A DNA stretch of 60,280 nt, filler included, from Jimgerdemannia flammicorona (taxonomy: Eukaryota), in NCBI GenBank assembly GCA_003990765.1. It is 3 parts of 3 records of this genome, joined end to end, with 100 filler letters (N's around TTAATTAATTAA, not from the genome) between each part and the next. Parts side by side here need not be neighbours in the genome. Positions count along the whole stretch, not along the records: positions 1 to 20,034 come from RBNJ01001777.1; 2 more parts are not named here. One strand, written 5' to 3'. Positions 153 to 35,600 of this stretch are shown piece by piece; the stretch's first letter is position 1, and each line of letters opens with the position of its first letter. The translations under genes were made by a program, and so were the position numbers. The notes beneath the pieces are model-generated. The model was not told where the DNA came from. It ran no database searches and worked only from the letters and a program-made list of their open reading frames with translations.

Positions 153-620
153 TGTAATGTAGTGAATACTTACTCTTGAAAGTACATTGGATTTCTGTAT
201 CTTGAAAACTTGACTGTTCTGACTCTTACAGAGTCTCTTGAAGTTGCAGGGGAGGGTGGGTGAGTTTGAAGTGTATCTGCCCACAGGCTTACTAGTTCCT
301 TTGCTATCTCTTTGCTTTTGAACTATTTCAATCTGAGGTTTATTCACTTGAAGATACTGGGTTATTTATACAAGTTTGCTAGCTATGAGATGGTTACTGG
401 GTTACATGACTAAGTTATGAGTCATTTAACACTTTGCGAAATATTTTGCCAGTTGCAAAATGCTATACTAAATCAAGAAGCTCGATCTTGTGTTTTGTGA
501 AATATTTTGCAAATGGCAGAATCAAGGACTGCTAACTATGTGGCTATACTACTTTGGGACTGGGTGCGATCAAGTATCTGTTCCCTATTTTCTTCTTCCA
601 AATCTGGTTATATCATCACA
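153..620 (-). repeat. 3' LTR of element A
   Basis: Near-identical to 6401-6868; differences are mostly transitions at ancestral CpG. Confidence 0.95.
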
Positions 621-1119
621 ACTTCCTCCTGAATAGATGATCTCGTCCCTGAAGTATTTATTCAAACTCCCAAGCTTCAATGGTCTGTATGGTCTTATAT
701 TATGTGATTTGTTATATTACTGTTTCCCAATGGTGTCATCTGACTTGGTTGAAGTCTGAGGGAGTCACTCCTCACAGGTGGGCTAGTGCTGGTTCATCCT
801 CTCAGAATAGCTTATGGATTCTCTTAGAAATGGTGATTTGGGAATAGGAGAGCTGGCATTCTGTGATCCAATTTTCTTTGGTCATTTCTGGGTCTTGGTT
901 GAGTACTTGGCCAAGTTTGAAGTACTCTTGAAATTCATTTCGATGCTGATAGGCCTTGAAGTGTGAAATTCGAGAGAGATGAGTCTACACAATACTTTAG
1001 ATACTGTCATAAGACTCCTCTATGGTCAGAGGCTCGGTGGTGCACCATTGTCTCTCGATGGCTCTTTGGGCAGCACTAGTGATCTTAAGTGCCATCACAG
1101 TACTTTTGTTACTGGCCAT
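617..1119 (-). pseudogene. Accessory ORF3 of element A (unknown function, ~167 codons)
   Basis: ATG at 1119 overlaps the IN end. One frame runs to the PPT/LTR, and all internal stops can be explained by C>T. Contains EYFKLGQVL...ISKRIHKLF. Confidence 0.75.
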
Positions 1120-2295
1120 GATATTTCTTGAGTCAGTTTCAGTGAATGATGGTGGGGATTATTGTGCCTGAGGGTTTTTGTAGCCAAAAGGTGGTCCCTT
1201 TTATATCTTGCACAAGGTAAGGTCCTTCCCACTTGGGCTCCAGTTTTCGTGACCATGAAGCTTCTACCATATTCTGATACACTAGGACTTTGTCTCCTAT
1301 CTTGATAATCTCCAAGGGTTTGTAGATCTTTTCTGCATTCCTCCATTATAGTGTCTGTACCTTGGTTATGTAATCTTTAGCCTTCTTCCTGATTTGGTGT
1401 AGTCTCCATATTTCCATGTCCACATGTTTCCATACAGCATCTCCATTGGATGATAGGGTTCCCTGAGAACATTCTTCTCTGAACAGCATTTCTCAAGAGG
1501 TAAAGTAGGTACTTTGTGATCAGATATCCCGGAGAGTGGATAATGCTATTGGCAGATAGTGATCCCAGTTCTCATAGTTATCATAGATCTTGGCAATAAC
1601 ATTCTTGAGAGTTTTGTTAGTCCTTTCTACTTGTCCATTTCCTTGAGGGTGATATGCTGTGGTCTGAATATGCTGGATCTTGTACTTCTTGTAGAGAACT
1701 TCAAAGAACTGGTTCACAAATTCCATTCCTCTATCTGTAGTTACTTGTGTTGAGATCTTGAACTGGCAGATGATTTCTTTGTGGAAGAAATCGGCAATTG
1801 ACTGTGCATTGGCTTCCATAAGGGATCCTGCTTCTATCCATTTTGTAAAAAGGTCTACGATGATGATGATGTATCGGTTACCAGTCAAAGTCAAGGGTAG
1901 AGGGCCAATTATATCCATTGCAATGTGGGCAAATGGTACTGGTTCTATGTGTGCTGATTCTGGAGCTTGATTTCATTAGTCTTGTTTCTGTTTCTAGCAT
2001 TTGTCACAGGTCTTGACGAATTGTCTGATATCTTCCTCTATCCCTGACCACCATATTGTTCTTCTTGCCTTGTCATATGTATTCGTTCCTCCTAGATAGC
2101 CAAGTTCATGTACTGATTTCATCGCTTGCTCCTTCTTGTGTTCTGGTATGACTAGTAGTTTTCCTTTCTTCAGTGTTTCTCTGTCAGTTTTGAATTTTTT
2201 CCATGTTCTGTTGATAATCATTTGTATCCATTCTTCCAGATATTGGGGTATCTTTCGCTGTCCCAGGTATGTGATAATTCCATAGTAGAGCTCCT
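1109..2295 (-). pseudogene. Integrase of element A
   Basis: Decayed HHCC (FVKTCDKC), MDIIGPLP, TDRGMEF, TTAYHPQGNGQVERTN, and C-terminal KLEPKWEGPY. Confidence 0.95.
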
Positions 2296-2309
2296 TATTC
2301 ATAATTGAT

Positions 2310-3720
2310 TTATTGGTTGGAGGTAGTTTGGGGTATCTGTGAGAGGGCATCTGTATTGGCATTGGTTCTTCCAGAGCGGTGTATGATGGTTACATCATAA
2401 ACTTGCAACTTCATTATCCATCTGGCATAGATTCCTTTGGGTTGTCCGGTTGTCAGTAGCCAGGTGAGAGCTGAGTGGTCTGTTTGGATGGTGAAGTATC
2501 TTCCAGCCAAGTAGTAGTAGAACTTTTCTATGGCCCAGATGACTGTGAGGCATTCCAACTTGTAGGATTCATATTCTTTTTCAGCTCCTCGGGTTCCATG
2601 GCTGAGGTATGTGATGATATACTCCACTTTATCTTTCTTTTGAGCTAGGACTACTCCTAGTCCTTGTGCAATTGCATCAGTCTGTAGGATGAATTCTTGA
2701 GTCCAGTCAGGTCTTCTGAGGATGGGTGCCTGGGTCAGTCTGACCTTGAGTTCATCAAATGCTTTTTGTTGTCTGCCAGTCCACTGGAACTTGGTATCCT
2801 TCTTGTTAAGTTCATAGATTGGTCCTGCAATATTAGAAAATCCTCTAATAAATCTGCGATAATAGGAGGCAAGTCCCATGAAGGCTTGGGCTTCTGTAAT
2901 AGTGGTGGGTCTTGGGTATGCTGCCACTGCTTGTATCTTGAGGGGGTCTGTGTTTGTTCCATCTTGGTTGATGATGTGGCCAAGATAGGAGATCTCGATT
3001 TCTGCAAATTTCTATTTTTTGGGCTTGATGTATAGGCCATGCTTTCTCAGTCTTTCCATTATTTGCCAGATGTGCTGCAGGTGTTCTTCTGGTGTCTGGC
3101 TGTAGATGATTACATCATCAACATAGACCATCATCCATCTTCCCATATCATAGCAGAAGATTTTGTTCATCATTCACTGGAAACTTGCTGGTGCATTGCA
3201 CATTCCAAATGGCATTCATAGGTAGACGTAGGTTCCACCTGGGGTGATAAAAGCTGAATTTTCGCTTGCCATGTCTGTGAGTCCAATTTGGTGGAATTCT
3301 GAGTATAAGTCCAAAGTGCTGTAGTACTATACTTCATCTTCCAGTATTATGAGGATGTCATTGATGAGAGGCAGTGATTGGCAATCCTTCTTGGTGACCA
3401 TGTTGAGCTTTCTGTAGTCAACACAGAGTCTTGGGGTGAATTCTCCAGGCTTGCTGCCCTTTTTTGGGACTAGTACAACAGGTGAGGACCAGGGGCTGCT
3501 GGCTTCTTTAATAATGCCGGCTTCTTCCATCTGCTTGATTTCTTCTCTGAGCCATTCTCGGTAGACTGGCAGAATAGGTCTTGCCTTCTGATAGATTGGT
3601 TCAGTGTCTCCAGTATCTACTTCATGATAGTAGTGTGGGGTCTTTCCTTTGATATCCTTGAAATCTGTGGCAAGGACATCTTCGAATTCGTGGAGTATTT
3701 TCTTGAGTTCTTTCTTGAGT
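2310..3720 (-). pseudogene. Reverse transcriptase + RNase H of element A
   Basis: SSPWSSPVVLVPKK, RLCVDYRKLN, MPFG, YVDD (~3115-3126), FMGLASYYRRFI, LQTDA, TDHSAL. Confidence 0.95.
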
Positions 3721-3819
3721 GGAAATTCATTTCCGATGGTGTAGCTGTGCTTGCTTGTGTTTTCCTCCTTCTTATGCTCGAGTTCAGTGATCTTGGTACT
3801 GGTGAATACTCCTCTTCCT

Positions 3820-4180
3820 GAGGATCCAAATTCTTTCTTTCCTCTTTTCATTTCCTCTAGCTTCTTAACTTCTATGATCTTTAGTTGTAGGATTGGAAAG
3901 ATCAACATTTGTGCCAGTTGGTTCTTCTTCTTGACTGGAAATGGAATTGTAGAATTGTGATTCCTAGCAATGAGTAGAATTTCTCTAGTATAGTCTGAAT
4001 TGATGACTCCTCCTTTGATTGTGATTTCACTTCTAGTCAGACTGCTTCTTGTCTTGAGAATCCTGACATGATCCTTTGGAATGGTCATCTCCAGTCCAGT
4101 TGCAAGTAGGGTGGTTGTCTGGGGTTCCAGTACAGTCTCTTCTACTGTAGCAATGTCCATTCTGGCTGCATTTTCTGACT
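3820..4180 (-). pseudogene. dUTPase domain of element A (between PR and RT)
   Basis: TGLEMTIP, RSSL, GGVINSDYT(G)EI, LAQML and RGKKEFGSSG correspond to trimeric dUTPase motifs II-V. Confidence 0.9.
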
Positions 4181-4597
4181 TATATTCTGGCAAGACTGCA
4201 TCAGGGTGGGTCTTTCGAATCTGACCTTGATTTCTTCTTCATCATCACTATCCTCTAGGAAGGCTGGTGGTTTATCATCTTCCTTCTTCTCTTCTTCCCT
4301 GATCTGTTTTTCGAGGGCTTTCTGCCTTCTTTCCTGGTGGATCTTCTTGATTCTGATGGTGCACTGGTAGCAATCATTGACATACTCTATATAGTATATC
4401 TTGATCTCATGAGGACAGACTCCTTGTGGTGCATAGCCTTCTGTGATCTTCTTATACCATTCTTCTTTACTCATCCATCCAACTTTCTTCTTCTTTAGAG
4501 TAGTTACCATATAAGCTTCCTCTTGCTCACTCTCTTCTTTCTCCATATCAGGCAGAACTCCTTTGTTGACATTGATGGGAATTCGTATCTTCTGTCC

Positions 4598-5041
4598 TCA
4601 GTAGGTGATCTGCATCTTCTGAGCATTGAGATCGATTACTGCCTTGGCTTTGTGAAGCCATTTATTACCGATGAGGATGTCATAGTTGGTGGCATTGGTT
4701 ACAATTATATCTACTGGGATTGTTGCTCCTCCAATCTTGATGGAAACATCTCTGATCTTTCCCAGAGATGTGGCTCTTATACCATCAGCTGTGACAAACA
4801 CCAGCTTAGTTGCTTCTTCCACATTCCAACCTAGGCAGTCTGCTGCCTTCTTGCTGAGGAGACATCCTCCTGCTCCCATATCAATGATGGCTTCAAAGAT
4901 TCTATCTTTAATTTGGCATGTTGCATAAGCAGAGGTTTTGCAATTATCCTCACTTTCTTCTTCTGAGTCCTCTTGAACATTATTGGCCTCAGTTATCTTC
5001 CATCCTTGTTCCTTAGTTGTTTCGGCAAGTCCAAACCTCAT
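4598..5041 (-). pseudogene. Retropepsin aspartic protease of element A
   Basis: AIIDMGAGGCLL (DTG>DMG via ACG>ATG) and YDILIGNKWL motifs. Confidence 0.9.
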
Positions 5042-6290
5042 TTGCTGTCTGAATGTTGGTATTTCTGTGAGCTGACCAAAGGTTGCATTGACCTTTTGTT
5101 GACTGGGGTCCTTAAAGATATCATACTTGAAGGACTTGGTCTTGCGAAGCTTCTTTTCTTTTTCTCCTTCACTGGCTGGAGTGGTTCCTCAGATAATATC
5201 TTGAACTGCTTGCTCCAGCTCCATATCTTGGTCCATCTCTTCAGCTTGGCTTTCTGTGGCAGTTTCCATCCACTTTTCCACTGGGTTCTTCTTGGGTCTT
5301 TCTGGTGGTCTCTTGTAGGGTTCTTTGCGAACATCCTTCTTGGTTGTCTGAGCAGAATAGGCCTCCTATTCCTCTTCATCGGATTCTCTGATTTCTTCAA
5401 AGGTGATTGTATTGGCCTGTTCCTTGTTTCATGAAGCATTGCTTGGTTGAGCCTTGTGCTTGGTTTTGCTCATGTATTCATAGGAGTAGTGGCCTTCTTC
5501 TCCACAGCTGTAGCAGGTACCTTTCTTCTTGTCTGAGGTGGTAGCAAACTTCTGAACAGGGTGGCAGTCTCTTCCTCGAATTTCCTTTACCACATCTCCT
5601 AGGTGGGCAGTCATTTCAGCAAACCTTTTGGCGAGTTCCTCCATAGGGTCACTGTTCTTTTGCTGCTCTGTAGCTTTTGGCTGAGGTGTGTTTTGATTAA
5701 TCATTGTGGTGGGGATCACACTGGTTGACTTAGGTACCTTGATTCTGACTTCTGTAACTCTCTCCATTGTATGGTCTTGTGGGTGTCTGGCTATCCAGTA
5801 TCACTGAGCATAGGTGACCTTTTGTGGCAGATCCAGAATTACTGGTGATGAGCAGATAGCCATGGCTATTTCTGGATGGACTCCTTTCATGAAGTTTGCT
5901 TTGGCTACTTGATCTCAGATAGCAGTGGCATAATCTGCAAGAATTATCTGATATCAGATTCTGGTATAGAATGTGTTTGGATCTTCACTCATTACTTGGC
6001 ATATTATATTGAGCTGATCCTTCAGGGCTTGCTTGATCTTATCTATATAATATGTATTTCAGAGCCAGGTCTTCTGTGCTATCAGTATAGCATCGGCATC
6101 ATTTCCTGCATGGGTTGTAGCTGTGAATGCTGCTCTGGCAGGACCTCATAGACTGAAAGGCATGAGGGCTACTTGCTGTGCTGCTGTCAGGGTCCTTACA
6201 GCAGTATACTGCTTGAAATCATCAATAAAGGTGATAATTGATTCATCTGAGGTATATCTATGGAATACTGGTGGTCTCATATCCATCTTA
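5038..6290 (-). pseudogene. gag of element A
   Basis: Decayed zinc knuckle CYSCGEEGHYSYEY (CX2CX4HX4C with the last C mutated) in ORF 5429-5767, located after the PBS. Confidence 0.8.
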
Positions 6291-6400
6291 TCTGGGTATT
6301 GGGGCTTGGTTTGTATGGTTGTTCAGGTAGTGGCAGTTGTTTGTTGTTCAGCTTGAAAGTGAGGGATTCATCTTGAATCACCAGCCAATGGGCACCAAGT

Positions 6401-6868
6401 TGTAACATAGCAGATACTTACTCTTGAAAGTACATTGGATTTCTGTATCTTGAAAACTTGACTGTTCTGACTCTTACAGAGTCTCTTGAAGTTGCAGCGG
6501 AGAGTGGGTGAGTTCAAAATGTATCTGCCCACAGGCTTACTAGTTCCTTTGCTATCTCTTTGCTTTTGAACTATTTTGATCTGAGGTTTATTCACTCGAA
6601 GATACTGGGTTATTTATACAAGTTTGCTAGCTATGAGATGGTTACTGGGTTATGTGGCTAAGTTATGAGTCATTTAACACTTTGCGAAATATTTTGCCAG
6701 TTGCAAAATACTATACTAAATCGAGAAGCTTGATCTCGCACTTTGCAAAATATTTCACAAATGGCAGAATTGAGGACTGCTAACTATGTGGCTATACTAC
6801 TTTGGAACTGGGTGCGATCAAGTGTCTGTTCCCTATTTCCTTCTTCCAAATCTGGTCATACCGTCACA
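6401..6868 (-). repeat. 5' LTR of element A
   Basis: Direct repeat of 153-620, followed on the minus strand by ACT+TGGTGCCC (PBS-like). Confidence 0.95.
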
Positions 6869-9085
6869 ATAGCTAAAGAAGGAAATATTACTAATAGTAA
6901 AGATCACTCTAACTCTAAAGGTTACCCTGACCTTAAAGGTCACTCTAATTATGAATATCTACTTGTAAATAGTCATTCTATAGTTAGCTATATAGTAACC
7001 AGATAGTAATTACAACTATATAAATAATTCAAAGATAAGAGTAAATAAACCTCAGTTTAAAATTAAAACTAAAAAGCAAAAGATAAGTCTGCCTACTATA
7101 CTTCAAGAGATATATCTATCAAAAGCCACTTGATCCTAAAGAAAAAAAATTACAATACTTAGAAGAAATATCCACTCTAAAGCTATTTATAGAAAATTAT
7201 AAGCTTAATATCTAATTTGTACTCCAGTTCTCTTTCTGATATAAAAAGTCTGCTATATTTTAGTTCACTTACCAGATAAGTCAGAAGAGAAGTCTGTTAT
7301 CTTGCCATAAAGTTAGTCTATCTGATATAATTTTATAGTGAATTTATTTATTCAAATGAAGCCAGTCTTTAATATAAAACTATATAATATTCAAAAAGCC
7401 TACTGATTCAGAAAAAATCCACATTATATATCTGTTAAACTAAGTAATCTGAGTTATATATCTACTAAATTAAGTAATTACAGAATCAGAAGAATTAAGA
7501 ATAGTCTCTAGAAGGTTACTCAGACTCACTATATCTTATCTGAGATCAGCAATATCACTCTTAGGATACTGAAGTATCTTTAGTTCCAGTAATAGTTCAG
7601 AAAGTAAATCAGAATTAAAACCAGAATCAGAATTAGAAAATAGTGATAATGAAATAATCATCTCAATACCTATCTTTACAGAATATCCAGAAGAAGACTC
7701 AAGGGAATTCCTTGATAGAATTAAAGAAATTATAGTTCTGAAAAATCTCTCTACTAAGTCCAACTCAGAGAACCAGTCAAGAGAATCTATAGAACAGTTA
7801 TCTATATAGTAGCAATCTGGAAAGCAAAATATGAAGCTATGATCTATTAGTTTATTGAGAAATACATAGAAAATAAAACCTGTCACAAGGCTTAAGAATC
7901 TATTATAAGAATAAAGATAAATCTTAGAGAATCACCCAGAGAATTCTTTACTAAAATTTAAAAATAATATATGTAATAATATTTAATACTACCAATCTAG
8001 ACATCATAGGTCCAATGATCTTTATAAATAGGATTCTCCTGAACATTATTCAGTATATTTACACTCTAGGTATCAGAAGACCTGAAGAATAAATAGATGC
8101 AGCTCAAGGATTTTTTTGATATCAGATAAGGAATTATCTGGAGTAATTATAATAAGAAGGATAACAAGGAAGATCTCTTGGTTAAAACTCTATAAGAACT
8201 CTTCTAAGGACAAGGAAGACCTGAAGAAAGAAAACTAGTCAAGGAATAAAAGAGAGAAAGAAATGAAATCTAAGATCTCAACTCTAAGTTAGATCAATTA
8301 ATTGGGAAAATTGAAAAACTCACTATATATGAAAAATTAAAACTACTAGCAGGACAACAGAGAGTACATACTATGAATAAATCAAGATTACTCATCCAGA
8401 GATAACAGGAGCTATCAGTTATAAGAAGAAAGAAGATATCCTATATAAGATTGAGCTCAAGTCCAATGCTTCTACTGTGGACAATTTGGATACTATACTA
8501 TAGAATATAATAACAGAAGAAATAATAAGAGAGACTCAGAACCATTAAATCAAAAGAATGAAACTCAGTACAAGAAGACCAAAGTCTACTCTATTAAAAA
8601 CTTTAAAGAGAAAAGTAACAGCAAAGATTACAGTAACCTAGATCTATACCCAGTTAAGATTATTATCAGAAAACAGTCTATCTAGTAGAGAAAAGAAAGA
8701 TATCTATAAGAAGACTATCCAGAAATATCAGTAGAAGAATTATTTAAGAAGAAGATAAAGAAAATAAAGAAGAGTAGATTGAAAAACCTTTCTGGTCTCT
8801 CTCACCTTTTGTTCTTAAAATAAATGAACTACTACTAGAGAATAAAGAAATAGAGTAAGAAGAACAGAAGTCTACTATCTCAAAGCTCAAAAAGAAGTAT
8901 ACTCTAAAGACTATATCCAGAGTTATCTATAATAAAGTCTGATAAAAGATTTAAGAAACCAAGATAGAAGTCTATCTCTTATAGTTCTTATAACTGATAT
9001 CTGCTAGAATTTGAAATAAACTGTTAAGAACTATAAGATCTAATACTGGCTGAGTCCCAATCCTATAATAAGAACCAATCCCAAC

Positions 9086-9380
9086 TAGTGCTCTCAAACA
9101 AATTGAATCAAATCAAATTGAGGTCATTTAAATTGAATTGAATTGAGGGTCCAATTTAACCCCTATTTTTAGAAATATAATAACTTGATGAAAATACATC
9201 CAAATTTAATGATCTTTAGTTTGTTGGATTTCTCTTATAAAGAGAAATCTAACAAGCTAATAATTATTAAATTTGGACATGTTTTTATCAAGTTATTACA
9301 TTTCTAAAAATAGAGTTTGAATTAAATCTCAAATCAAATTTGATTCAAATTTGATTCAATTTGATTTATTGAGAGTACTA
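9086..9380. mobile_element. Palindromic hAT-type MITE inserted in element B
   Basis: Ends TAGTGCTCTC / GAGAGTACTA. The whole element is a near-palindrome centred at ~9237. Flanks ATCCCAAC / GCCTCAAC fit a decayed 8-bp TSD. Confidence 0.85.
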
Positions 9381-11099
9381 GCCTCAACCACTATTTAGGC
9401 TGTAAAAAGACATATCAGTATATATATATCTATATAGAGATATTGGAGAACAAAAGGCAAAAATCCTTATTGATACAAAAGCAGCTATCTGTATCATTGC
9501 TAAATAATTCCTAGGCACCTTTCAATAGCCTATTGATGGACCATCCAACCTTAGCATCATAGTAGCAGATAGAGCCCAAACTCAAACTCTGGGAGAAGTA
9601 TGAAACATTACTACCTCCCTGAGTCATATTTAGTTTTTTATTCCAAAAGCTATTATTACTAAAGCTATTATTTATAATATAATCCTTAGTACTAACTAGA
9701 TGAAAGAAATGAATATAGTTATTGATATCAGTCTATAGATACTCAAATTAAACTATAGGAGAAAGAAGTACAGAATCAAGATAACTAGTTATAAGCAGTC
9801 AAAGAAAAAGAAGAAGATCACTATTCAGGAAGAGTATACTAGTAGTAAGAAATCTACTATAGAAGAAAAAGAAGAATCTAAAGATAGAAATAATTCTGGA
9901 CTTAACCCACAAATTAACATCATAGATGACAGGTCAGAAGACAATGTGTGGGCCAAATATATTATCTCTATTACAATTGAAGTTATTGCAAGACAAATCA
10001 AAGGATACCCCATCTATCTCAAAAGTATAAGTGCCCCAAATACTCCTCTAAGATCATTGGAACTAGAAATTTGTCTGATCTAGTCTGCTCTGAGTATAGA
10101 AGAAAAAAGAAGAAATATAAGTATACTGTAAAAATATCTACAATAAAAGCTACAGAATTATAAGTAATCTCAGATTAAGAAATATCTGAAGAAGAAACTT
10201 CTGAACAAGAGGTTCCCAAACAGAAGAAACTCCTGAACAAGAGGTTCCCAAACAGAAGGAGCTCTCTGAACTTATTTTCTAAGATGATACTTACTAAACA
10301 CCACTAGAAGATAATAACTCTTGGAATACTAAAGAAGAACTAAGTATAGTCACTATTGTCTAAAGATAAGAAACATATCAGAAAAGAACCTTTTGACTAG
10401 AAAGATATTAGCACTAAATAGTCTTCTACTCTCTCCAAGACTACTACTATTAGTACTATCTACTAGACTAATAAGAAAGACAGAGACCCTGTAGACCAGA
10501 AGTTCTAATCACAATTACTCAAATAACTATTTCTAAGAAACCACTACAATGTTGAAAAAGTATGCCAATGAATAAGACCACTTTATCTGAACAGAAGTAT
10601 AGCTCTTAGCTACTCTTCTCGCAATTTATAATAAGAATGAATACCAATTTCTAAGGTAGTAAGAAATCAATAACTAAGAACTACATTTCTGAGCAATGGG
10701 ATATTATAACTATAGAAAACATCCAGACTGCCAAAACTGTCTATATCAGAAGATTTATCTCATTCGAGATATTACTGTATATATATTAAAGAGAAGAGAT
10801 GACAGAGTTCAGATCTGAAGAAACCAGACTAAGAAATCAAAGAAGAAGGCTCTCAAGATCTATAATCTGTAAGAAGACATCCTAGTTCTCATCAGATATA
10901 TAACTTATCAAGAATGGGTAAAAGACACTATCAACTTTATTGAAACCATAGACCTTATAGAAAAGAGAGAAATCAACTACCTCTGAGATCCCTCTACTAG
11001 AGCCAGATGGCTGTATCTCAATCTTAGAGCCTGGGAGCTTATCTTCACTGGAGCCTTAGCTCAAGGACAACCTAAGTTCTAAAGATATCACCCAGTATA

Positions 11100-11500
11100 T
11101 CTTACTATATCCAAAGGCCAAACCTCTGACCAAAGCTCACCAGAAAGATGTGGGATATAATCTCTATAGTTTAGAAGATAAATATAATAAGCCTAGAAGA
11201 ATAATGATACTTAGCATAGAACTAGCTATATAGCTATCTAAAGGAATCTACATCCAACTAGTCTCAAGGTCTGGACTCACTAGACAAAAAATAACTATAA
11301 AAGGAAAAATAATAAACTCTGGATATATAGATAAAATCAAGGTCATCTTGAATAATAGTAATATAAAATGGTATCAAATCTATAAAGAACAAAAGATTAT
11401 ACAAGTAATCTTTATAAAAGTCATAACTCCCTAGCTATAAGAGGTCTCCAAACTAACTTAAGAAATAAAGCAAACTGAAGAATTTGAAAGCTCAGATAAA
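11100..11500 (+). pseudogene. dUTPase domain of element B
   Basis: KDVGYNLYS (DAGYDL), LVSRSGL, KIINSGYIDKIKVIL and EEFESS (GFGSS) decayed motifs. Confidence 0.8.
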
Positions 11501-14381
11501 AAAGAAGTATAGCTTTTTCAGATCAACTACTTCAAGAAGAATATCCCTCAGCAAGTATACTACCAATCAGTTAAGCTATACAAAAACCTCATCCTAGAAT
11601 TAAGAGAGCAGACTATCTTTAAAATCTTTATACTATCTAATTTTAGAAATCTCTTCTTTAAACTCAATAAAGACATCAAGAACCTAGATATAGAAGAATA
11701 TATGTTTTCTGATAAGATAAACCCCATATACTCCTAAGCAATCAACCAAATCTGGAAAAGCCTCATTCTATTAAAAAAAAGCATTATAGGCTATTTGGTA
11801 CTCTATCTCAATCAAATACATAGAGAAGTTTATAAACTAAACTTATTAGGAGATAGCAAAAGATCCTAGAAGAAAGAAAAGACCTCTTTGTGATCTAGGA
11901 GAAAGTGAAGTCTTTTACTAATATTGAAGAAGAATTGATATCTCAGCAATGGCAATAACTAGTAGAGTTTCTTCATAAATACCAAGACATCTTTACTACA
12001 GACTATAGCAATCTAATATATAACTTATTATACTACTATAGTATAAATATAGAAAATGCAATACTTATCTAGCAGAAGTCTTATAGAATACTCTATCACC
12101 TAAAGATATTCAAGAAGGAATATATTTAGAAACACTTAGATAATAGAGTTATCTAATCCACCACCAGTCTCTGGGCCAGCTCTATATTTAATATACCTAA
12201 GAAAAGAGAATGAAAACTCTATATAAACTACAGAAAGCTCAACTCAGTTACTAAAAAAGATATCTACTTCTTGCCCAAAAATGATGACCTCTTAGATCAA
12301 TTGCAAGATGCCAGATACTTCACCAGTATAGATCTTTTTGCAGAATTTCATAAGATCTCTATGGACCCCAAGAATATTCAGAAGACAGCTTTCCTTATTC
12401 TAAAAAATTATTTAAATACTTCTAAATATCCTTTGGACTTTGTAATATACCCCCCACCTTCTAAAGAATGATAAACTCAGTCTATGGCCCACTGATTCAC
12501 TACTGTCTAATTGTATATATAGATAATTCCAACATCTATTCAGTAAATTTTGAAGAATACCTACACTATCTAGAGAAATTCTTTAAGCTCATCTTAAGAA
12601 TCACCTGAGACTCAATACCAAGAAATACTACTTTAGAAAATAGAAACTCAAATTTTTTGAATTTATAGTTTCAAAAGAAGGAACTCATGTAGACCCAAAG
12701 AAAATTAAGAAGATTAATAACTGGCCAATATCTAAGACTCCAAAGGAAATATTATCATTCTTGATATTAATATTCTACTATAAGAGATTTATCAAGAACT
12801 TCACTCAAATTACTACTCCAATCTGAACTCTTCTCAAGAAAGAAGTATTATATAAATAGATAGAACTATAAAAACTAGTCTTCAAAGAACTTAAACACTA
12901 CATAACTACAGCAAAAATTCTTATATGGCCCAATCTATAAAAGCTATTCATCTTATATATAGATGTTTCTAAAGATAGCCTTAGAGCAGTTTTAGCCCAA
13001 AAAGAATCTAACTAGTAGTATTATATAATAGCTTATACAAGCTGAGCTATCAACTAGCAGTAAATTAATTATGGCAGCACTAAACTAGAATACCTTACAG
13101 TTATATAGGTGGTCACTTTGTTTAAGTACTATCTTATCAGAAAAATATTCACTCTGATAACTAACTATATTACTCTCAAATAGCTATTCAACTATAAGAA
13201 ATCTACCAGAATCCTTGTCTGCTGGATCCTTATTCTATAAGATTATAAATTACCATTATCTACAAAGTAGAGAAAGTCTATAACAATATTGATATACTTT
13301 TCTACCAACTCTAATAAACTAGAAGAAGGGTGTACTGAGGAACTATATTCTAAAGAAAGCTCTTTTAATCATTAAAGTACAAAAAGACCTCATCTAAAAA
13401 GAATACCAGAAAGCTCATCAAGGATAGATGAATATAGAAGAAAGGTTAAAAACAATACATTAACATTTGCCTAACCTCTAAATATAAATCAGAAATATAC
13501 TCAAGAAATGTAATATCTATCAGAAGTACCAAGAGAAGAAAAACTATCAAGTACTACTACAATTAATTATACTATCAGATAATATCTTTCAGAGATGGGA
13601 AGTAGATATTATTGGACTCCTACTAGTTATACTAAGAAGAAACAAATACATATATTCTAGTATTTATAGAATATCTGACCAAATGGTCTAAAGCTTTCTC
13701 AATAGAAATTATCAATGTCTTGACTATTGTTGGCCTCCTTCATAGCCTCATACTCAAATATAAACTCTCAGAAGAACTTATTTCTGACCAAGGTACAGAA
13801 TTTATCAATAATATAATTATAAGTTATATCTGAATTCACAAGATTCATCTCAAATTAACTATATAATACTACTTTCAAATTAATGATATAATAGAATGAA
13901 TAAACCAGACCATTAAGAAAGAACTTGTTTAAGTCAATTCTACTAACTGAGATATCTGCTTATCTGAGATCCTATGGGAAATTCAGAATACCCCTATTAT
14001 CTCTACTAAACAAAAGCCATTTGAGATAATGTTTACTAAAAAAAACCAGAACTACTAATCATGAGAATCTTAAAGACCTTCTCAAAAAGACAGAACAATT
14101 ACATAATCAAGTCTGAGCTCAGATAATCAAGGCTTAGAAAAGATAAAAGAAGTACTATAACCAGAAGTAGAAAGATCAGAAGATTAAGATTAAAGATCAA
14201 GTACTAGTTTGGAGAAGTATAATTGAAACAAACTTTGCTATCAAGCTAGAGTCTAAATGGAAAGGATCTTATCTCATATATAATATTAGAGGAACTAGCA
14301 TCTATTTAAGAAGTATGAATAGATAAATCCTGAAGACTCCAGTATACATCAATTATCTCAAGATATATCTATCTCCATATA

Positions 14382-14930
14382 ATGACTCAGAGAATTGACC
14401 AGTGTCTCCAGACCCTTATTCTCAGTTCTTTCTAAGTCCTACTTATTTCTCTGCCTCAGTTCTATCTACTTGAAGAAACTCTAATATAATTAATCTAAAA
14501 ATACCAAGAAAATCTTACTATTGTCCAGAGGCTGTTATAGATCTACTATCTATAGCTCTTCTACAATATTAGACAATTATTACAAAAGTAACTATATCTA
14601 AAGAGAACAGCTAGTATAACTCTCCAAGAAGTCTGAACTACAAAAAGGCTCTATACTTTATATAGATGAAATTTAGAAGTTCTGTCATAAGTCTATTTCT
14701 ACCTAACTGATATCTATCAGATAAATAAGATAATCTTCTAGAATACTTTCCAATAAGTAGATATCCTATTCTCTGAAGAACAGAAAGAAAACCCAGAACT
14801 AGAATGGAGTGATCCAGATTCAAAAGAAGATAATGATACCAGTATAGATATAAAAGATACTTATAAATATTAGAATAATAACTAAAGAACAGTCTAAGGA
14901 TAGACTATCTTTTAGGAGGAGCTGATGTGA
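14382..14930 (+). pseudogene. Accessory ORF3 of element B
   Basis: ATG at 14382 overlaps the IN end and one frame runs to the LTR: LFYNI(R/G)QLL...TTKRLYTLYR, similar to ORF3 of A. Confidence 0.7.
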
Positions 14931-15845
14931 TGAGCCAGTAGAAAAACATACTAAGTTACTATCTGAACTAGTTACTATAATTTAGCCATATATCATATCA
15001 AGTATATTAGATAATCAGAATATCAATTTATATAAATAACTCAGATAGCTAAAGAAGGAAATATTACTAACAGTAAAGATTACTCTGATCCTGAAGGTCA
15101 CTCTGACCTTAAAGATCATTCTGACCTTAAAGGTCACTCTGACTGTAAATTTTCACTCATAAATAACCATTCTATAGTTAGTTACATAGTAACTAAATAG
15201 TAATTATAACTGTATAAAATACTCCAAAGAAAAGAGTGAATAAACCTCAGTCTGAAATTGAAACTAAAAAGCAAAAGACAAGTCTGCCTACTATACTTCA
15301 AGGAATATATCTGTCAAAAGCCACTTGATTCTAAGAGAAAAGAATTACAATACTTAGAAGAAATATCTACTCTAAAATTACTTTTAGAAGATTGTAAGCT
15401 TGATATCGAATTTATCTCTAGTTTCCTTTCTGATACAAAGAGGTCCATTATATTTTGGTTCACTTATCAGATAAGTTAGAAGAGAAGTCCACTATCTTGT
15501 TATAAAATCAATCTACCTAATATAATCTTATAGTAAATTTATTCATACAAATGAAGCCAGTCTTTGATATAACTTTATTCAAGAATCCAAATTGTTTAAG
15601 AAGCTCACTAATTTAGAAAAAATCCACATTATCTACCAAACTGAGTTATCTGAGTTATCTACTAAATAGAGTTATCTGAGTTATTCACCAAACTGAGTTA
15701 TCTAAATTATCTGTCAAACTAAATTCTCTACCAAATTACCAATCTACTGCTTATTAAAAAATTCTGCCAAATCTATCACATTATGTCAGAAATTATATAT
15801 TTTTAGAAATCATTATACTATACTGAGAAATTGACCATCCTAGAT
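14926..15845 (+). repeat. 3' LTR of element B (~0.9 kb, with internal 18-bp and GAGTTATCT tandem repeats)
   Basis: Starts TGTGATGAGCC after the PPT; homologous to 18-152/6873-7480 and to 41515-42542. Confidence 0.85.
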
Positions 15846-18924: not shown

Positions 18925-20034
18925 GTATAAGCTCCTTTCTCTGCTACCTCACCGGTCACAAGGTTTGGTAGATGACCTTCCAAGTCCCCTTTCCCCTAAT
19001 ATTACCCCCTCTACCTCAGGTTGGTTTGCTGTGTCTGTAGGGGCATGGTGGGAGGAGGGCAATGGTGATGAGTTGCCCCTTTATCAGTGTCGGATCAGTG
19101 CTTCCTCCACTTTTTCACGGATTCTGGTACCTTCAGCTGCATCTGGGGTGTACCCGTTTTGGTGCAGCACCTTCTTCCTTTTGCCATCGCCAACAAGGAG
19201 TTGTCTCAGTGTGTCTTGGGCTACATAGAGAGTTGGCTGACCTTGGACATCAAGTGCTCAGTGTAGGTTACCTGCAGGTCCTCAGTGTCTGTGGTGGGGC
19301 CCTCTGGCTTTGGCGAGCTTCCCGGCAAGCACGGTTCTGGCATCGGTGACTGCTTTTCAGGTGTTGTCGGGATGGGAGGGGAGATGGCCATCACAGATAG
19401 GTGGAAGGGCGATTACGGTGAACCAGTAGGGTGCCAGGCTGGGGGCGGTCATTGGGGCTGGGGCAGGTGCTGCTTCAGTGGGGCCTTTTGATTGGTACGG
19501 CATGGTTAGGTGGTAGGTGTCACTATCGGCTTCTTTTGGCAGTCAGTGGGGTTGGGCCCCAGTCGTCAGGGGGGGTCAGGAGGCCTGAGGCTACCCATTT
19601 CAGGCATCTTGGCTGCACTCAACTAGAACCAGGAGCTGACACGGCAACATGATCGAGGCCCGCAGGCTTGAGTAGTGAGATATTGGGGGTTTCCTCCTGC
19701 CTCACGTATAAGTCCTTTACTCACCTCAACTGGGAGAACCAGGCCCTACTCACCGTGTTGTACTTTGATGAGGGTTTTTTATTTGCCTGTCATTCTCTTT
19801 GGGGTAGCAGGGGCTATTCTATTCGGCTCGGGCATGGCCTTATATATACGTTGGGTTCTCAGGCATGCGCTTTTGGTCATTGGCATATGGTTGGATTTCC
19901 CCTAGTGGTAGGGAGAGCATGGTGTGCAGAATGAGGTGCGGGCTTATCAGCCCTGCTGCGCCTGGCATGGTCAAGCTGCTGGACAATAGCTAGCCTAGGT
20001 TAATGGGGGGGCAGTGCTTGGTGGGTGGTGGGGG
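18925..20034 (+). mobile_element. Copy 1 (cut by contig end) of a 1.19-kb non-autonomous poly(A) retroposon
   Basis: Colinear with 49074-50190 and starts at the same 5' point. Confidence 0.85.
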
Positions 20035-20134
20035 NNNNNNNNNNNNNNNNNNNNNNNNNNNNNNNNNNNNNNNNNNNNTTAATTAATTAANNNNNNNNNN
20101 NNNNNNNNNNNNNNNNNNNNNNNNNNNNNNNNNN
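20035..20134. other. Artificial contig linker (N44-TTAATTAATTAA-N44)
   Basis: Six-frame-stop linker embedded in Ns. Confidence 0.98.
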
Positions 20135-20416
20135 ACGAAGTCGCGCTGAAACCAGGAATGGTGTATTTTTTTTTTTTTTTTGTTGTTTTAAATTTTGTAA
20201 TAATCGAAATAAATGCATATTGTGGTGGATGTGTGTTGTAATGCGAAAATCAAAAACGATTGGTCTTGAATTGCTGATCCTGAACCGGAATACCTTAATA
20301 AATTGTTCAAGGAGGTGGATAAGATAGAGGACCCAACCCTGAGAAGATGTTCATCTGAGTTATGCTCGGAACGTCGCATGTATTGGCATGCACAATAATA
20401 ATATGCAACTCCAGGA

Positions 20417-20616
20417 ATGAAGATGTTCAAGAAGGCGACTGAGGCAAACGCAGCACTACAGAGACACATTCCACCGGAGATTATAGGCACCATACTGCAA
20501 TTTTTGTTACCTAATATCTTACCTAATATCCCTATATTCCCGCTTGACCTCTTCGCCAACGCACTGGTCTGTAAATCCTGGTATCAAGAAGCAGTTACAA
20601 AGCCACCTGTCAAAGA
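20417..20616 (+). CDS. F-box domain-containing exon/ORF
   Basis: IPPEIIGTILQFL...DLFANALVCKSWYQEA matches the F-box consensus; the region retains CpG. Confidence 0.7.
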
Positions 20617-20676
20617 GTATATAGGAGTTATTAACATTGGGTTCGCCTTTTTTTTTTTTTTTTTTTTTTTTTTCAT

Positions 20677-21189
20677 GTGATATATACGATCCATGATCCA
20701 TATGACCCATATGATCATCGTAAAAAGGATGCATACGTCGATCTCAGTGGGCCCCTATTCGAGAACGACACGTTCATCGACACTATCGATGATGTCAATC
20801 ATCGGGATCGAGTCCTCGACCTCCTCAAAGTAGAAGCATTGCAAAGATTTAGGGATAACCTCATCGAAACAGCGCTCGCAAGCGTAGCCTATACCCTCGA
20901 AGACTTCTACAACGCCATCCAAGGGCGTTACATGTATTGGTGCTCCGGCACCTCTAACCGCCCCGAAGTGCTGCTTGGAGAACGAGCGCAGAGGTCCTAT
21001 CTGGCCCATTGGCAGAAAATGTCCATCCAATTCGAACGAGGCAATACCGACCTCCGAGGGTCATTGCCACCAACAGCTAGCCAGCAAATTGGCCTCGAGG
21101 GACTCCGTACTGAATACCCAGACTTAAACCGTGAACAACGAGAATTTGCCCGAAGGCGCTTTGCCCCCAACCGACCCCCGAGCCTTTAG
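20677..21189 (+). CDS. Hypothetical protein/exon, possibly spliced to the upstream F-box exon
   Basis: 170-codon CpG-rich open frame after a poly(T) tract; no recognisable family. Confidence 0.5.
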   Translation: MIYTIHDPYDPYDHRKKDAYVDLSGPLFENDTFIDTIDDVNHRDRVLDLLKVEALQRFRDNLIETALASVAYTLEDFYNAIQGRYMYWCSGTSNRPEVLLGERAQRSYLAHWQKMSIQFERGNTDLRGSLPPTASQQIGLEGLRTEYPDLNREQREFARRRFAPNRPPSL

Positions 21190-29230: not shown

Positions 29231-30333
29231 CTAGGACCTGCCAAATTTTAGTAGCCTAAGCCCCACTAAGATTTCAGACATATACATATATATCTGGATT
29301 GTCTCAGCATTCAGCATATACCTCTTAGGGACAACAAGATCTACCCCACCTATGAATACCCACTCAATGGGAGTACTGGAGGTAGGAATTGTCAGATAGT
29401 CCCAAGCCATACTACATAGTTTGAAAAAGTCTGTTTGATATAGCTGCATGCTCTGGTGGATAGTGAAGTAGTTAGAATGGTAGATTAAATTGGCCCAATA
29501 CAACCAACCACCTGCCTGACAACTCATCTTCTACCAGTTGAGCACCTCTGCATTCTCCAGCAGGATCATGTGGTCACTGGTAAGATAAATGGTGAGTTCA
29601 TCTATTGATGGTAGCTCTTCCACTAATGGCTCCATCTTCTTCTTTCTGCTGAAGTAAATATGAGACAGGAGGGATTCCTTGGTATATTCTTCCAGACTTT
29701 GACCAGAACCTTATAGTGGTGTATAGTTTTTCTGGTATATTTTGATTATGGCCTGCTTGGTTCTCTCAATGAAGTACTGCTCTCAGCCCTGATCTTTATA
29801 GTATTGTAACTTTAAGTGTGGATCCAGTACTGTTTAGAGAAAGAGAGTGAGTTTTTGCAGGAGTTTCTCTGTTTTTGAAAGAGACAATAGCCACATGCTG
29901 ACATATCTGTACTGATTGAGTATATAGTGATATTTGTTTTGGAGTAGTATTTTCTGAGCTTGCTTAGAACAACCTCTACAGTATCTCTCTGATCTAGACT
30001 TAACTGTAAATTACCACAACTCTCTAGTCTGTCCTCAAGCTAGTCCTCTAGCCAGTCAATCAGAAGGTTATATATTAGTATTGCAGAGCTTATTGTTGAG
30101 GTCATTTGTTTGACTATATCCTTCATACAATCATTGAAACACTGGCAGTTATATATGGTGAGGTATTATATTATACAGAGGTAGACAAAATGAGTGTAGG
30201 GCCAGAGCAATCATCACTTACTTTCAAAACTCTAACAATATTCCTAAGTACATCTCACTTGCTTTCTCCTAGAGCCTTGCCCCACATTTCCTTATTGACA
30301 GCTACCATTGAATCTATTGACTTTTTTTGTTTT

Positions 30334-32330: not shown

Positions 32331-32699
32331 TCAGAGCACTAGGTAGAAGTAAGGATGGACCTGGATATTGACAACTCAATTCCTCCTTACTAGCTAAGAA
32401 GAATTTATAGGATACTTGGGTAGGGGATATTGGGTTGAAGATTATTTTTTAAAACTATAAGAGGCTCCTAATAGGGGTCTATTAAATGAGATTTAAGAAA
32501 GCTACTAGAGTATATTAGAGAGAAATAGGTGAGTTTGCTGAAAAGAAGCAGCAGAGGAGGATGAGGTGGGCCTCTGATAGGTTGGTCCAGTTGTAGATAG
32601 AATGAGCTGATCTGTTGAACCAGGGAATAGTGGATAATTTTTTTTTTTTTTTTATAGTCTCTTGGACTGCCCTTTATTACCAAAGTCTATAATGTATAC

Positions 32700-35600
32700 A
32701 ATACAATGCCACCCCTGTCCTCAACCAACACCCCGAGGGCCCAAACCCTCCCTCTCAACCTCCCCCTGCCCGAGCACCACCCAATTACCTACCACCCGAA
32801 CCCTCCCACCACTCTTCTGGGCAATACTCTGCACCAGACCCCTGCGGTACCCCCCACCCATCCCCTAACCTTGCCACCAACTATTCAAAATATCCAACAT
32901 CAACCATTCCCACCTAGCCATCTTGTCACCAACCCCCACCCAGCGCCCTTCCTTGAATACATAAACCCAGTACCCTGCCAGTCCAACCTACATAGCCAAA
33001 GCCCAACTAAGGGTCAGCCATTTGTCCCCAACTCCACCTACCATGCACCGGCAGAGCTCTCCTCACCTCCTCTCCTCCTCACCCTCTCTGGCCCCCATTC
33101 CTACCCTGTCTATAATACCCCTCCAAAACTCCCCCAAAACCTCGCATTCACTAAGCCAATGTTCAGGCATTTGTATCACTCCTCCCTCCTGACCAACATT
33201 GAAACAATCCTCGCACTTGAATACCCCACCATCCACCAAGTATCCAGACTGATAGTTCAACATCACATTCTGCCATAGAACCCTCCACTATACCACCCAG
33301 AACTTGGGGGGCAGCCACTGCTGCACCTGTTTGCTCCAAAGCCAGAGTCCATTCCAATTCCACTCCTCCCCAATTCCAACCCTCTGCCAGGCTTCTGGCC
33401 AAAGGTCCCTGCAGATACTCCAGACCCTCGCCAAGCTGAAAGTCCTCCACCAGGACCCCCCCCAAAAGAAGCCTGTCCCACTGCCATATCCACGGTCCCC
33501 AATCCTCCTCGGCTTCATCCCCTCACCACTGAAGTCCAATCTTCTTAGCACCATCCACCACCCCCTACCAAAAGCCCATAAACCGCATCTTCCTGCTCCC
33601 TTCCATGGCCACCATCGCAAGCAGATCTCTGGAGCCACCACATGGGGAGTACCAAACCTCCCACAACCTCTGCATGAGGGGCACCCACTCCCGCCCCCTG
33701 AGCTCGCTTGCCCTTCACAGCCACCAGACTCTCAGACATAGAAGTTGCCTAGTAAAGTCCACTAAGCCCAGCCCACCTCTTTCCAAGTGTAGTGTGAGCA
33801 CCTCCCAACCAACCTGGCTCTGCTGTCCTCCCCAGATCCATGACCTCGCCATCTTCAACAACTCCTTAATCACCCAGGTAGGAAGGTCCAAATGATATCC
33901 AATATACCACAGCTTCGGCATCTAGTATACATTCAACACCATCACTCTTCTGGCAAGGGACATATGCTGGCCTCCCCATCTCAGCAAAACATCACCCCAC
34001 TCCAGAAGTTTATGGTTCCACCATACCCGGGGAAGAAGGGATCCAAACACTGAGAAGTAGATCCCCAAGTAGTGCACTGGTTCACCTGCTAGCACCACCA
34101 TCCCAATAACATTGCCACCAACAATTCCAGCACCCAGCACTAGCATCTCACATTTGTGCCAGTTAAGTTTAGCACCAGAACCCTGCTCATACCATTCCAC
34201 AGTTCTCTGTAGCTTTCCCACATCTCCCAAGGAGCCCAGCCCGACCACCATATCATCAGCAAAGGCCCCCACCTTCCAGTTTACCCCTAAAATGTCCAAG
34301 CCTCCAATCTTATGCCGAATCCTGTCCAATAGCAGCTCCAGGGAGAGAGCATACAATATGGGTGACAATGGGTCCCCTTGTGGCACCCCGCGTCCCAGGG
34401 GAAAGGTTACCCCCCAGTAGTTATTAATGACCAATGCTGCCTGACTGTCCTCTAAGAGGCTGATTAATGCTCTTTGGACCCTTGGCGGGACACTAATCCA
34501 CTTCAGCACTCCTTTCAGCCATAATCTCCACACTCTATCATAAGCCTTCTCCTGGTTCAGAAATACCAATCTGCCATCCACCCCTGTCGCCTGAGCACCT
34601 TCAATCACTCCATGAACCCAGGCTGTCCCATCCCAAATCAACCAACCACCGACAAACCCACATTGCTCCACACCAAGAACCTGCTGGGCGATGCTCTGCA
34701 ACCTCACCACCAAGATTTTTGTCACCAATTTGCGATCCATATCGAGAAGTATAATCGGCCGCTAGTTCTTCCAGTCCTCACACCTTCCCTTGTCCTTAAA
34801 GAGCAAAGAGACCAGTCCTAAGCGCTGTCCCCCAATCCAGGCCCCAGACCGAAGAACTCCATCACACATAGCAGTTATTTCCTCTAGCACCACACCCACC
34901 CCGGCCATCTTCTGCCAAAAATCTCAGGGAAGCCCATCCTCTCCTGGAGCCGTCCCCTTACTCGTTGAGGCCACAATCCTGCAAATCTCCTCACCACTCA
35001 CTGGGTCCCCCAATGCCCCAAGACCCATTGCAGGGTCTGGATACCAATCCCCCAGCTGTCTTTCAATGTTCAGGGCATCCAATCCCCCATCCTCCTCACT
35101 CCAAAGATTCCTCCACTAGGTTCGTAGTAGGTCCAGAATTGCCAGCGTCCCCACCACCAGCTCACCATTCTCATCCAAAACCCCCTCCCACCACTGCCTC
35201 ATACGTCATGCTTGTAACAACCATGACAAGAATCTGGTAGGCCTCTCCCCCTCCTCAAGCCCCTGCCACCACAGGTGAGCCACCATTCCCTGCAACTGCT
35301 CCTCCTCCTCTCTACATAGTACCCCTTTGAGCTTCTCCACCTCCTGCTGTATTCTTACAATACGCCAATCAGTCATGGCCCCCTCCTCCAGCACACCTGC
35401 CCATCTCTCCATAAGTGCTGCTAGACGCCGCGAGGCCCACAGTACCTGCCACCTTCACTGGGCACACTTTCCTTTCCCTGCTTCCCTCCAATACTCCTGA
35501 GCCTTCACCTTCAGCCTTCTCCAGTGGTCCCCAATCTCCAGTCCTTGTTTCTGCCACCTACCTATGTTTCCAACCACCTCTGATTCCCATCTCTCCCACA

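Follow-up and report, generated by a model that had tools for sequence, protein, structure and literature searches.

What kind of gene lies in the 3′ part of three decayed Gypsy elements, and is it one and the same gene in all of them? For most LTR retrotransposons, gag and pol are generally considered sufficient. A preliminary description of the present locus had claimed a third open reading frame (ORF3) between the integrase and the 3′ LTR in three different Gypsy families, termed here A, B (with a second copy, D) and E. The window, i.e., the entire stretch of 60,280 nucleotides that was analyzed, is a nest of decayed transposons according to self-comparison and Pfam scans, and ORF3 was followed from these decayed copies to open homologs, to its signs of selection and to its predicted fold.

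The third reading frame in its setting

Linkers (N...TTAATTAATTAA...N) at 20035-20134 and 40164-40263 indicate that the window consists of three joined contigs. Apart from the elements given below, it contains non-LTR elements and other fragments. The main parts of the Gypsy elements are as follows:

153-621, minus strand: 3′ LTR of element A, 92.5% identical to the 5′ LTR at 6401-6869 (self-comparison)
620, minus strand: start of the element A 3′ LTR, TGTGATG (sequence)
1120-5800, minus strand: gag, PR, dUTPase, RT, RNaseH and integrase of element A, without chromodomain (Pfam; GPY/F-type integrase end)
14923 to about 15675, plus strand: 3′ LTR of element B, beginning TGATGTGATG (self-comparison, sequence)
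45910-43023, minus strand: element D, the other copy of the B family, truncated and 79% identical to B
48584-48745, minus strand: chromodomain of chromovirus E with the pol stop at 48584-48586 (Pfam Chromo, E-value 3e-10)
about 48823-49009, minus strand: SH3/GPY-F module of chromovirus E (Pfam SH3_Tf2-1, E-value 1e-9)
51301-52527, minus strand: RNaseH and RT of chromovirus E (Pfam scans)
58487-58861, minus strand: dUTPase of chromovirus E, beyond a Copia insertion (Pfam scans)

The gag of element A is of the CCHC type. A chromodomain was detected by Pfam in family E and is absent from families A and B; the claim that ORF3 is common to chromoviral (E) and non-chromoviral (A, B) lineages therefore stands, the Chromo domain being confined to the pol of E. 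All three families also share a dUTPase between PR and RT, and they may thus represent a single lineage and not the breadth of Gypsy diversity. When aligned between the families, their pol domains exhibit only about 27-45% protein identity. The same placement of a dUTPase, between PR and RT, is mentioned for some basidiomycete families in passages of Novikova et al. 2010 (PMC2864245).

The third frame of elements A, B and D comprises the following features:

658-1119, minus strand: ORF3-A, 153 codons and a natural stop TAA at 658-660; a decayed copy with 7 internal stops
1076-1119, minus strand: overlap of ORF3-A, from its ATG (1117-1119), with the integrase end (stop 1076-1078); ORF3 in the +1 frame
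621-632, minus strand: PPT of element A, TCAGGAGGAAGT (AGGAGGAAG at 622-630)
14382-14885, plus strand: ORF3-B, 167 codons and a stop at 14883-14885; 12 internal stops
14914-14922, plus strand: PPT of element B, AGGAGGAGC, with the 3′ LTR next to it, from 14923
42590-43093, minus strand, lower end approximate: ORF3-D of the B family; start now ATA

In element A, the frame is located between the integrase end and the PPT/LTR, on the sense strand of the element, with the ATG placed 44 nt ahead of the integrase stop. The limits originally proposed for it, 617-1119, were correct at the start, and the end has to be moved from 617 to the natural stop. Likewise, the ATG at 14382 was correctly placed in element B, where it overlaps the integrase stop (14396-14398) by 17 nt, again in the +1 frame, and the frame closes at its natural stop instead of at 14930. 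An ATG that overlaps the integrase end is thus a feature of both elements, as had been described. The further statement that the frame runs to the PPT requires correction, since the ORF ends about 27 nt before it (27 nt in A). The two elements agree in the position, strand and +1 frame of ORF3, as well as in this distance of about 27 nt to the PPT. For element D, proposed to carry the frame at 42545-43093, the upper end was retained, the lower end was shifted to about 42590, and the initiator codon has become ATA. Past about codon 100 the D frame is disturbed and its alignment is no longer clean.

The arrangement in element E is more elaborate:

46727-47701, minus strand: E ORF, codons ~44 to ~360 and a stop TAA at 46727-46729; 10 internal stops
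47705-48190, approximate, minus strand: 3′ piece of a LINE (non-LTR) element where codons 1 to ~43 of the E ORF would be expected; similar to 38544-38871 and 33122-33408
40264-40369, minus strand: a second, little-decayed N-terminus of the E ORF, first 35 codons; 91% identical to residues 1-35 of the database protein P0022

The pol stop of E is followed by an AT-rich spacer of about 0.3-0.4 kb, the LINE piece and then the ORF from codon ~44 onward. The limits of 46730-47700 given previously needed small adjustments only: the frame starts at 47701, one base away, and terminates with the stop at 46727-46729. The first ~43 codons are missing from this copy, and homology to P0022 begins at residue 44 (window position 47695). 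The second N-terminal copy breaks off where its contig ends. The sequence upstream of it, at least 330 bp long, is devoid of integrase-like coding, and its alignment with the spacer that follows pol in E did not reach significance (score 239, compared to a null of 218 +/- 18). A search for the missing N-terminus in the spacer produced a score that was equaled or exceeded by 408 of 500 shuffles. Apparent matches to the N-terminus inside a 1.1-kb repeat were discarded, as they look compositional.

The sequence 3′ of the E ORF was compared with LTRs, with shuffled sequences scoring as high in 5/200 cases for the near-intact family-A element described below (L001), 74/200 for A and 41/200 for B. 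LTR-like signals, TATAAATA and GTGAATAAACCT, which resemble those of family-A LTRs, also occur 3′ of the E ORF; as evidence they are weak. Given its adjacency and its likeness to the ORF3s of A and B, the E ORF is probably part of chromovirus E, with good though incomplete confidence.

Open homologs and purifying selection

One objection to a third gene is that there is none, and that chance frames and motifs have been picked out of decayed, AT-rich non-coding DNA. The window copies considered by themselves are compatible with this view. Their stop density is at chance for A and B: the three sense frames of the ORF3-A region hold 7, 11 and 8 stops where 9.7 are expected (7-8 as against 9.7), and those of the ORF3-B region hold 14, 12 and 12 where 12.9 are expected (12-14 as against 12.9). 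Smith-Waterman alignment of the decayed A, B, D and E translations stays inside the range of shuffles and of all 36 frame pairs, and with the ORF3s as tblastn queries the window yields zero cross-hits at an E-value of up to 10. The stop-density test is uninformative for A and B, since Q, R and W codons have been turned into stops. In E, the frame has 10 stops in 300-323 codons, compared to about 20 expected, and one of the off-frames has 40.

Open homologs were found for all three families, which confirms the claim of a third ORF between integrase and 3′ LTR and the expectation that natural copies would be open. The X-read translation of A (P0001) retrieved 8 proteins, with E-values from 6e-75 to 1e-42, among 19 candidates. 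With cluster members added, family A comprises 15 proteins, of which three (P0006, P0015 and P0019) are complete at 153 aa, the others being cut by short contigs. The open family-A proteins have the same terminal stop as the window copy, which is 80% identical to P0006. The B translation matches an open protein of 172 aa (P0024, E-value 3e-29) and a partial one (P0025), the only two hits among 12 candidates. Likewise, the E ORF has two hits only among 1.84 billion representatives, namely P0021 (247 aa, E-value 2e-80) and P0022 (128 aa, E-value 4e-26). In tblastn against the window E ORF these two proteins score E-values of 6e-90 and 2e-32, respectively, and their overlap yields a full E ORF of about 360 aa. 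A homolog search with P0022 recovered itself alone among 6 candidates, and scans of viral contigs with A1, P0021 and P0022 as queries gave zero loci. A search of sequencing runs listed small shares (0.05-0.10) in soil-metagenome runs and in one coded organism, with no RNA data containing ORF3 among the runs listed. Judging by the type of element and by these soil relatives, the host is probably a fungus.

The open homologs also permit the internal stops of the window copies to be judged. The preliminary description had attributed them to C>T/G>A-type changes, which applies throughout to A, where 7/7 fall in columns in which open homologs have Q, R or W, and nearly so to E, with 9/10 at R, Q or W columns. 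For B, 8/12 stops fall at Q or W columns of P0024, the sole open full homolog, and the remaining 4/12 cannot be judged against a protein that is only 39% identical.

A near-intact family-A element, L001, was found on a metagenome contig of 6479 bp, as the one relative among 309 pattern matches. It codes for a gag-PR-dUTPase-RT-RNaseH frame of 1281 aa, an integrase with one break and an open ORF3 at 5795-6253. The ATG of this ORF3 (5795) precedes the integrase stop (5836-5838) by 44 nt and is in the +1 frame, exactly as in element A. L001 is also devoid of a chromodomain, and its PPT, which is the same tract, and its LTR start match those of element A. The DNA identity between the two elements is 64-84% over their whole length.

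Comparison of the window copy with L001 yields an ORF3-A dN/dS of 0.07 (NG86) or 0.14-0.17 (YN00), based on 131-146 of 138-153 codons in one pair from family A only. The corresponding values for gag, PR-dUTPase, RT-RH and integrase are 0.07-0.27, and the two off-frames of the ORF3-A stretch give 1.1-3.5. All of these figures are rough, because dS is saturated; the frame-specific contrast is nonetheless clear. The ORF3 of family A is thus under purifying selection, comparable to that on gag and pol, and the dN/dS below 1 that had been predicted is observed for this family. The open homologs, L001 and the frame-specific dN/dS (0.07-0.17 in frame, above 1 out of frame) together refute the chance-ORF reading, which retains a practically negligible probability, and the ORF3 of family A is almost certainly a genuine gene. 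ORF3 is best explained as a third gene of a Ty3/Gypsy lineage that also bears a dUTPase.

Likeness among the families and the predicted fold

Whether the three ORFs derive from one ancestor is a question of a different order, since they might be unrelated or have arisen independently in the same slot between integrase and PPT, their motif reflecting convergence or chance among helical proteins. The pairwise statistics, taken singly, leave room for such an origin. BLASTP of P0019 against P0022 gives an E-value of 0.034 over 56 residues, and hhalign gives pairwise P values of 0.0032 for A-B, 0.17 for A-E and 0.16 for B-E, with probabilities of 0.4-10%. The window translations do not rise above chance, the lengths differ (153, 172 and ~360 aa), and the family profiles are very shallow (Neff 1.3-2.5).

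Against an independent origin, the pairwise alignments share a single register, in which Y66, Y60 and Y61 of A, B and E correspond, a G follows four residues later and IAxR...LF about 30 residues later, so that the motifs are equally far from the start. Merging the families raised the score, as expected of true relatives: A versus B+E gave a P value of 2.2e-4 (7.8e-5 with -M first), A+B versus E 0.0084, and B versus trimmed E 0.027. The observed score for A versus B+E was 33.9, compared to 12.1 for the reversed alignment. Shuffling of the B+E columns gave 12.0 +/- 2.3 (maximum 19.8) and shuffling in blocks of 8 columns gave 15.6 +/- 3.2 (maximum 27.1), with 0/150 reaching the observed score in either case. 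The profile-profile significance on which the claim of homology was to stand or fall was thus attained once families were merged, the A-E and B-E comparisons remaining weak singly.

In a MAFFT alignment, the first ~115 residues of all families align with few gaps, and two motifs occupy matching positions in all three, i.e., [YF][YF]x[IL]GxxL (residues 60-73) and IA/TAxRxxxL[FY] (residues 90-105). The shared pattern noted in the decayed translations is therefore real, and the intact homologs of B and E do carry the G that had been restored by undoing a G>A change (YYAIGEQL and YYQIGRLL). Together with the agreement of A and B in position, strand, frame and distance to the PPT, these sequence comparisons make a shared ancestral ORF3 probable, and independent or chance origin correspondingly rather improbable.

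The protein appears to be composed of a conserved N-terminal domain of ~115 aa and a C-terminus that differs by family. The tail of B has a net charge of -18 after residue 115 and P0021, the C-terminal region of the E protein, has a net charge of -36; family A has a short acidic, aromatic end only and no acidic tail proper. The highest 19-residue Kyte-Doolittle mean is 0.19-0.97 in the six intact proteins, and maxima below 1.0 indicate no TM segment. By hydropathy, none of the six shows the signal peptide and TM anchor by which an env would be recognized, and no env or fusion glycoprotein family was matched in Pfam (E-values up to 5) or BFVD (E-values up to 0.001). The view that ORF3 is not an env gene is therefore borne out. 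Pfam Chromo gave no hit in the ORF3 proteins, and the same library finds this domain in the pol of E.

Modeling by AF2 gave a mean pLDDT of 51 with the family-A alignment and 55 with the three-family alignment. The latter model is all-helical (helices 2-25, 33-58, 61-75, 81-88, 92-113 and 121-151), which agrees with the helical protein postulated earlier, as far as a predicted model can. Its best part is residues 61-110, with a pLDDT of 70-78. Helices 61-75 and 81-88, a three-residue turn and helix 92-113 would form a helix-turn-helix (HTH)-like unit that holds both motifs, a reading confined to about 50 residues, as the models are poor as a whole. The ORF3 product is proposed, from these models, to be a small all-alpha protein of the cytosol or nucleus, and the earlier interpretation is supported in part, namely in treating ORF3 as a separate, conserved, helical, non-env gene.

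Searches for known relatives of this fold were largely negative. Neither a DNA-binding family, HTH domains of the XRE or Myb kind included, nor any other family was matched in Pfam, PHROGs or NCBIfam. The best E-value in a PDB sequence search was 0.13, and the best HTH candidate in a profile search was the TrfB repressor, with an E-value of 0.73. Foldseek returned nothing at an E-value of 0.001 or below from PDB or BFVD (best 0.66-0.99). VIA-align recovered only the N-terminal hairpin (residues 1-53) among generic helical hairpins with Z of at most 6.5, and it barely probed the core. The neighbors in the ESM Atlas were unnamed clusters, with an HTH_3 cluster only at rank 30, and these clusters were largely identical for the A and B queries.

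Expression, possible role and known counterparts

The ORF3 ATG is kept in A, L001 and B with an A at position -3, and the database proteins all begin at it. Read back from the ATG in L001, the ORF3 frame continues through 13 codons until a stop closes it, and a stop is found there in window A too. With somewhat better than even odds, expression of ORF3 would rely on an internal promoter or on an RNA that is subgenomic or spliced. Coupled termination-reinitiation, as proposed in the preliminary description, seems unlikely.

Another scheme would deny ORF3 an independent translation altogether, making it a C-terminal extension of integrase, produced by +1 frameshifting and serving as an integrase accessory domain. 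The frame itself invites this idea, as ORF3 is in +1 relative to integrase, which it overlaps by 44 nt in A/L001 and by 17 nt in B, and +1 frameshifting serves gag-pol in Ty1/Ty3. The 13 open codons before the L001 ATG are also in its favor. The retained ATG with its A at -3, at which the database proteins start, argues against a fusion, as do the stop that closes the frame 13 codons earlier in both the window copy and L001 and the E ORF, which seems to lie 0.3-0.4 kb beyond the pol stop. Such a fusion is thus very improbable.

Extra ORFs in LTR retrotransposons are an already known kind. Plant Ty3/Gypsy elements (Tat, Ogre and Athila) carry aORFs and env-like ORFs, mostly of unknown function, which are, like ORF3, lineage-specific ORFs adjoining gag-pol. 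The Athila-type ORFs are env-like with TM segments, whereas the ORF3 proteins have none. Extra ORFs of plant Ty3/Gypsy elements are also mentioned in passages of Novikova et al. 2010 (PMC2864245), where a figure legend names an "additional ORF" of some fungal Gypsy elements. The latter resembles ORF3 in being an extra ORF of unstated function in fungal Ty3/Gypsy elements; the legend passages give no sequence family, cross-family conservation or selection test for it, and from them its identity with ORF3 cannot be told. Bdelloid rotifer LTR retrotransposons are reported to have captured ORF3s (PMC5408684), which are likewise third ORFs across diverse retroelement families of one host group. They differ in belonging to another host group, and the present ORF3 proteins are without any Pfam domain. 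In Muszewska et al. 2011 (PMC3248453), searched by term, no passage describing such an ORF came up. Full-text literature searches for it returned one relevant item, the figure legend of PMC2864245, and within their reach a selected non-env protein family spanning chromoviral and non-chromoviral Gypsy elements appears to be undescribed.

A third gene which is selected as strongly as gag and pol, and which has no recognizable relatives, suggests that the life cycle of these elements includes an unrecognized step, for which regulation, targeting or defense against host silencing are candidates. The best-supported guess, at a probability of roughly 0.35-0.45, is that ORF3 may encode a nucleic-acid-binding regulator of the element. 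This suggestion draws on the three-helix core, modeled with moderate confidence, on the acidic tails, on the 3′-terminal position of the gene and on the analogy with regulators of complex retroviruses. According to this scheme, ORF3 would begin at its own ATG, in the +1 frame inside the last integrase codons (A, B), and its product would probably arise by reinitiation or through a message that is subgenomic or spliced, and not as a part of Pol. The core (61-113) would act as an HTH-like nucleic-acid-binding unit, the acidic aromatic tails would serve as the effector part, and the protein would regulate the element through its own LTR DNA or RNA, as a transactivator or an anti-silencing factor.

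In foamy viruses, the transactivator gene Tas/Bel1 occupies the 3′-terminal region that separates pol/env from the 3′ LTR. As a 3′ gene with DNA-binding and acidic activating parts, it may serve as a working analogy in the case of B and E. The acidic tail is lacking in family A, and the likeness is one of analogy, with no homology detected.

The gene may be real and shared, and its product still not a nucleic-acid-binding regulator. It could instead have a structural or life-cycle role, for example as a chaperone of particles or RNA, as an adaptor for nuclear import or the targeting of integration, or as a factor in copy-number control or self-restriction. The same gene-level evidence would apply to it, no DNA-binding family was matched in any library, and the long predicted helices 1-58 and 121-151 would suit protein-protein contacts. 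A role in targeting is conceivable, given that A and B are without the chromodomain that E has; E, however, has both the chromodomain and the ORF, so that the ORF does not simply stand in for a chromodomain. The part of the protein that is modeled best, three helices with a short turn, also speaks against this alternative, and nothing observed directly favors any of these roles. This alternative is accordingly held to be a minority prospect, below that of the nucleic-acid-binding regulator.

The U3 of family-A LTRs contains tandem 18-21 nt units with short palindromes, which are candidate binding sites only. A more specific form of the regulator proposal, which is doubtful as a whole, is that these are complex LTR retrotransposons, in which a dUTPase-bearing Gypsy lineage, probably fungal, would encode a sequence-specific regulator of a new HTH-like protein family with acidic effector tails. 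This protein would bind the repeated palindromic U3 units and serve either as an activator of LTR transcription or as a protection of new copies against host cytosine methylation and deamination. Its expression would depend on a subgenomic message, as for the regulatory genes of complex retroviruses.

VANC, a protein of VANDAL DNA transposons, recognizes its own element and counteracts DNA methylation. The comparison with ORF3 crosses both transposon class and kingdom and is pure analogy, made attractive by the old copies examined here, which are almost free of CpG. CpG is nearly absent from old copies in the genome of the window. As the host erases CpGs from such copies, the idea that the element encodes a counter-measure or a transactivator can be put to the test, and the small, soluble-looking protein, together with the natural intact sequences, makes direct biochemical tests feasible.

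Shared dUTPase and nested insertions

The three Gypsy families of the window, represented by element A (minus strand), element B (plus strand) and the chromodomain-bearing chromovirus E (minus strand), all carry a dUTPase between the protease and the RT, and this common position suggests that they form a single lineage. The dUTPase-bearing stretches lie at 10,800-11,500, 3330-4238 and 58487-58861 (chromovirus E) in the window, and at 2715-3100 in L001, a near-intact family-A element of 6479 bp on a metagenome contig.

Element A (153-6869), flanked by 18-152 and 6870-7478, sits within the 5' LTR of element B. The stretch at 18-152 aligns with the beginning of the element B 3' LTR (14930-15048), and ATAG, a likely target-site duplication, is present at each flank of element A. 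Two further features concern chromovirus E:

53374-58432, minus strand: Copia element with gag, beta-barrel, rve, SH3-like and RVT_2
49083-50184 and 18935-20030: two copies of a GC-rich 1.1-kb repeat, 81% identical to each other

The Copia element, which shows short terminal matches at its ends (53374-53529 versus 58277-58432), interrupts chromovirus E between dUTPase and RT. In the integrase of chromovirus E, the zinc-binding module and the SH3-like one are separated by the first repeat copy, probably an insertion, e.g., a solo LTR; the second copy runs up to a contig end.

LTR repeats and CpG depletion

Tandem units with short palindromes occur in the U3 of the family-A LTRs, both in L001 (174-277 and 6396-6479) and in the window (433-522 and 6678-6770). 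The LTR ends of L001 are unlike each other, because one carries four copies of a 21-nt unit containing GCCAAATGGC and the opposite one five copies of an 18-nt unit containing AGATCT; the contig may represent a collapsed or chimeric assembly.

The CpG observed/expected ratio declines from 0.44 in the intact L001 to 0.17 in element A (counted over 153-6869), 0.02 in element B (6869-15675) and 0.00 in element D, a truncated copy of the B family (42517-45910). In elements B and D, CpA/TpG is likewise low and TpA is raised. Such a dinucleotide pattern fits strong methylation-linked C-to-T decay in old copies.

Contig joins and other elements

The window is an artificial joining of three contigs, with the same linker (44 N, TTAATTAATTAA, 44 N) at 20035-20134 and 40164-40263, and the neighbourhood across either join is therefore uninformative. 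The remaining features are as follows:

32670-38400, minus strand: GC-rich non-LTR element (GC 0.48-0.54) with little decay; its N-terminus is endonuclease-like, RVT_1 lies at 33925-34761, and the element ends in poly-A near 32670
38543-38871, 40688-40922 (inverted) and 47838-48165: more 3' pieces of the same non-LTR kind
29234-29530, minus strand: hAT-type dimerisation domain fragment (E 6e-5)
20402-20677, plus strand: weak F-box-like match (E 3e-4, under the Pfam cut-off)
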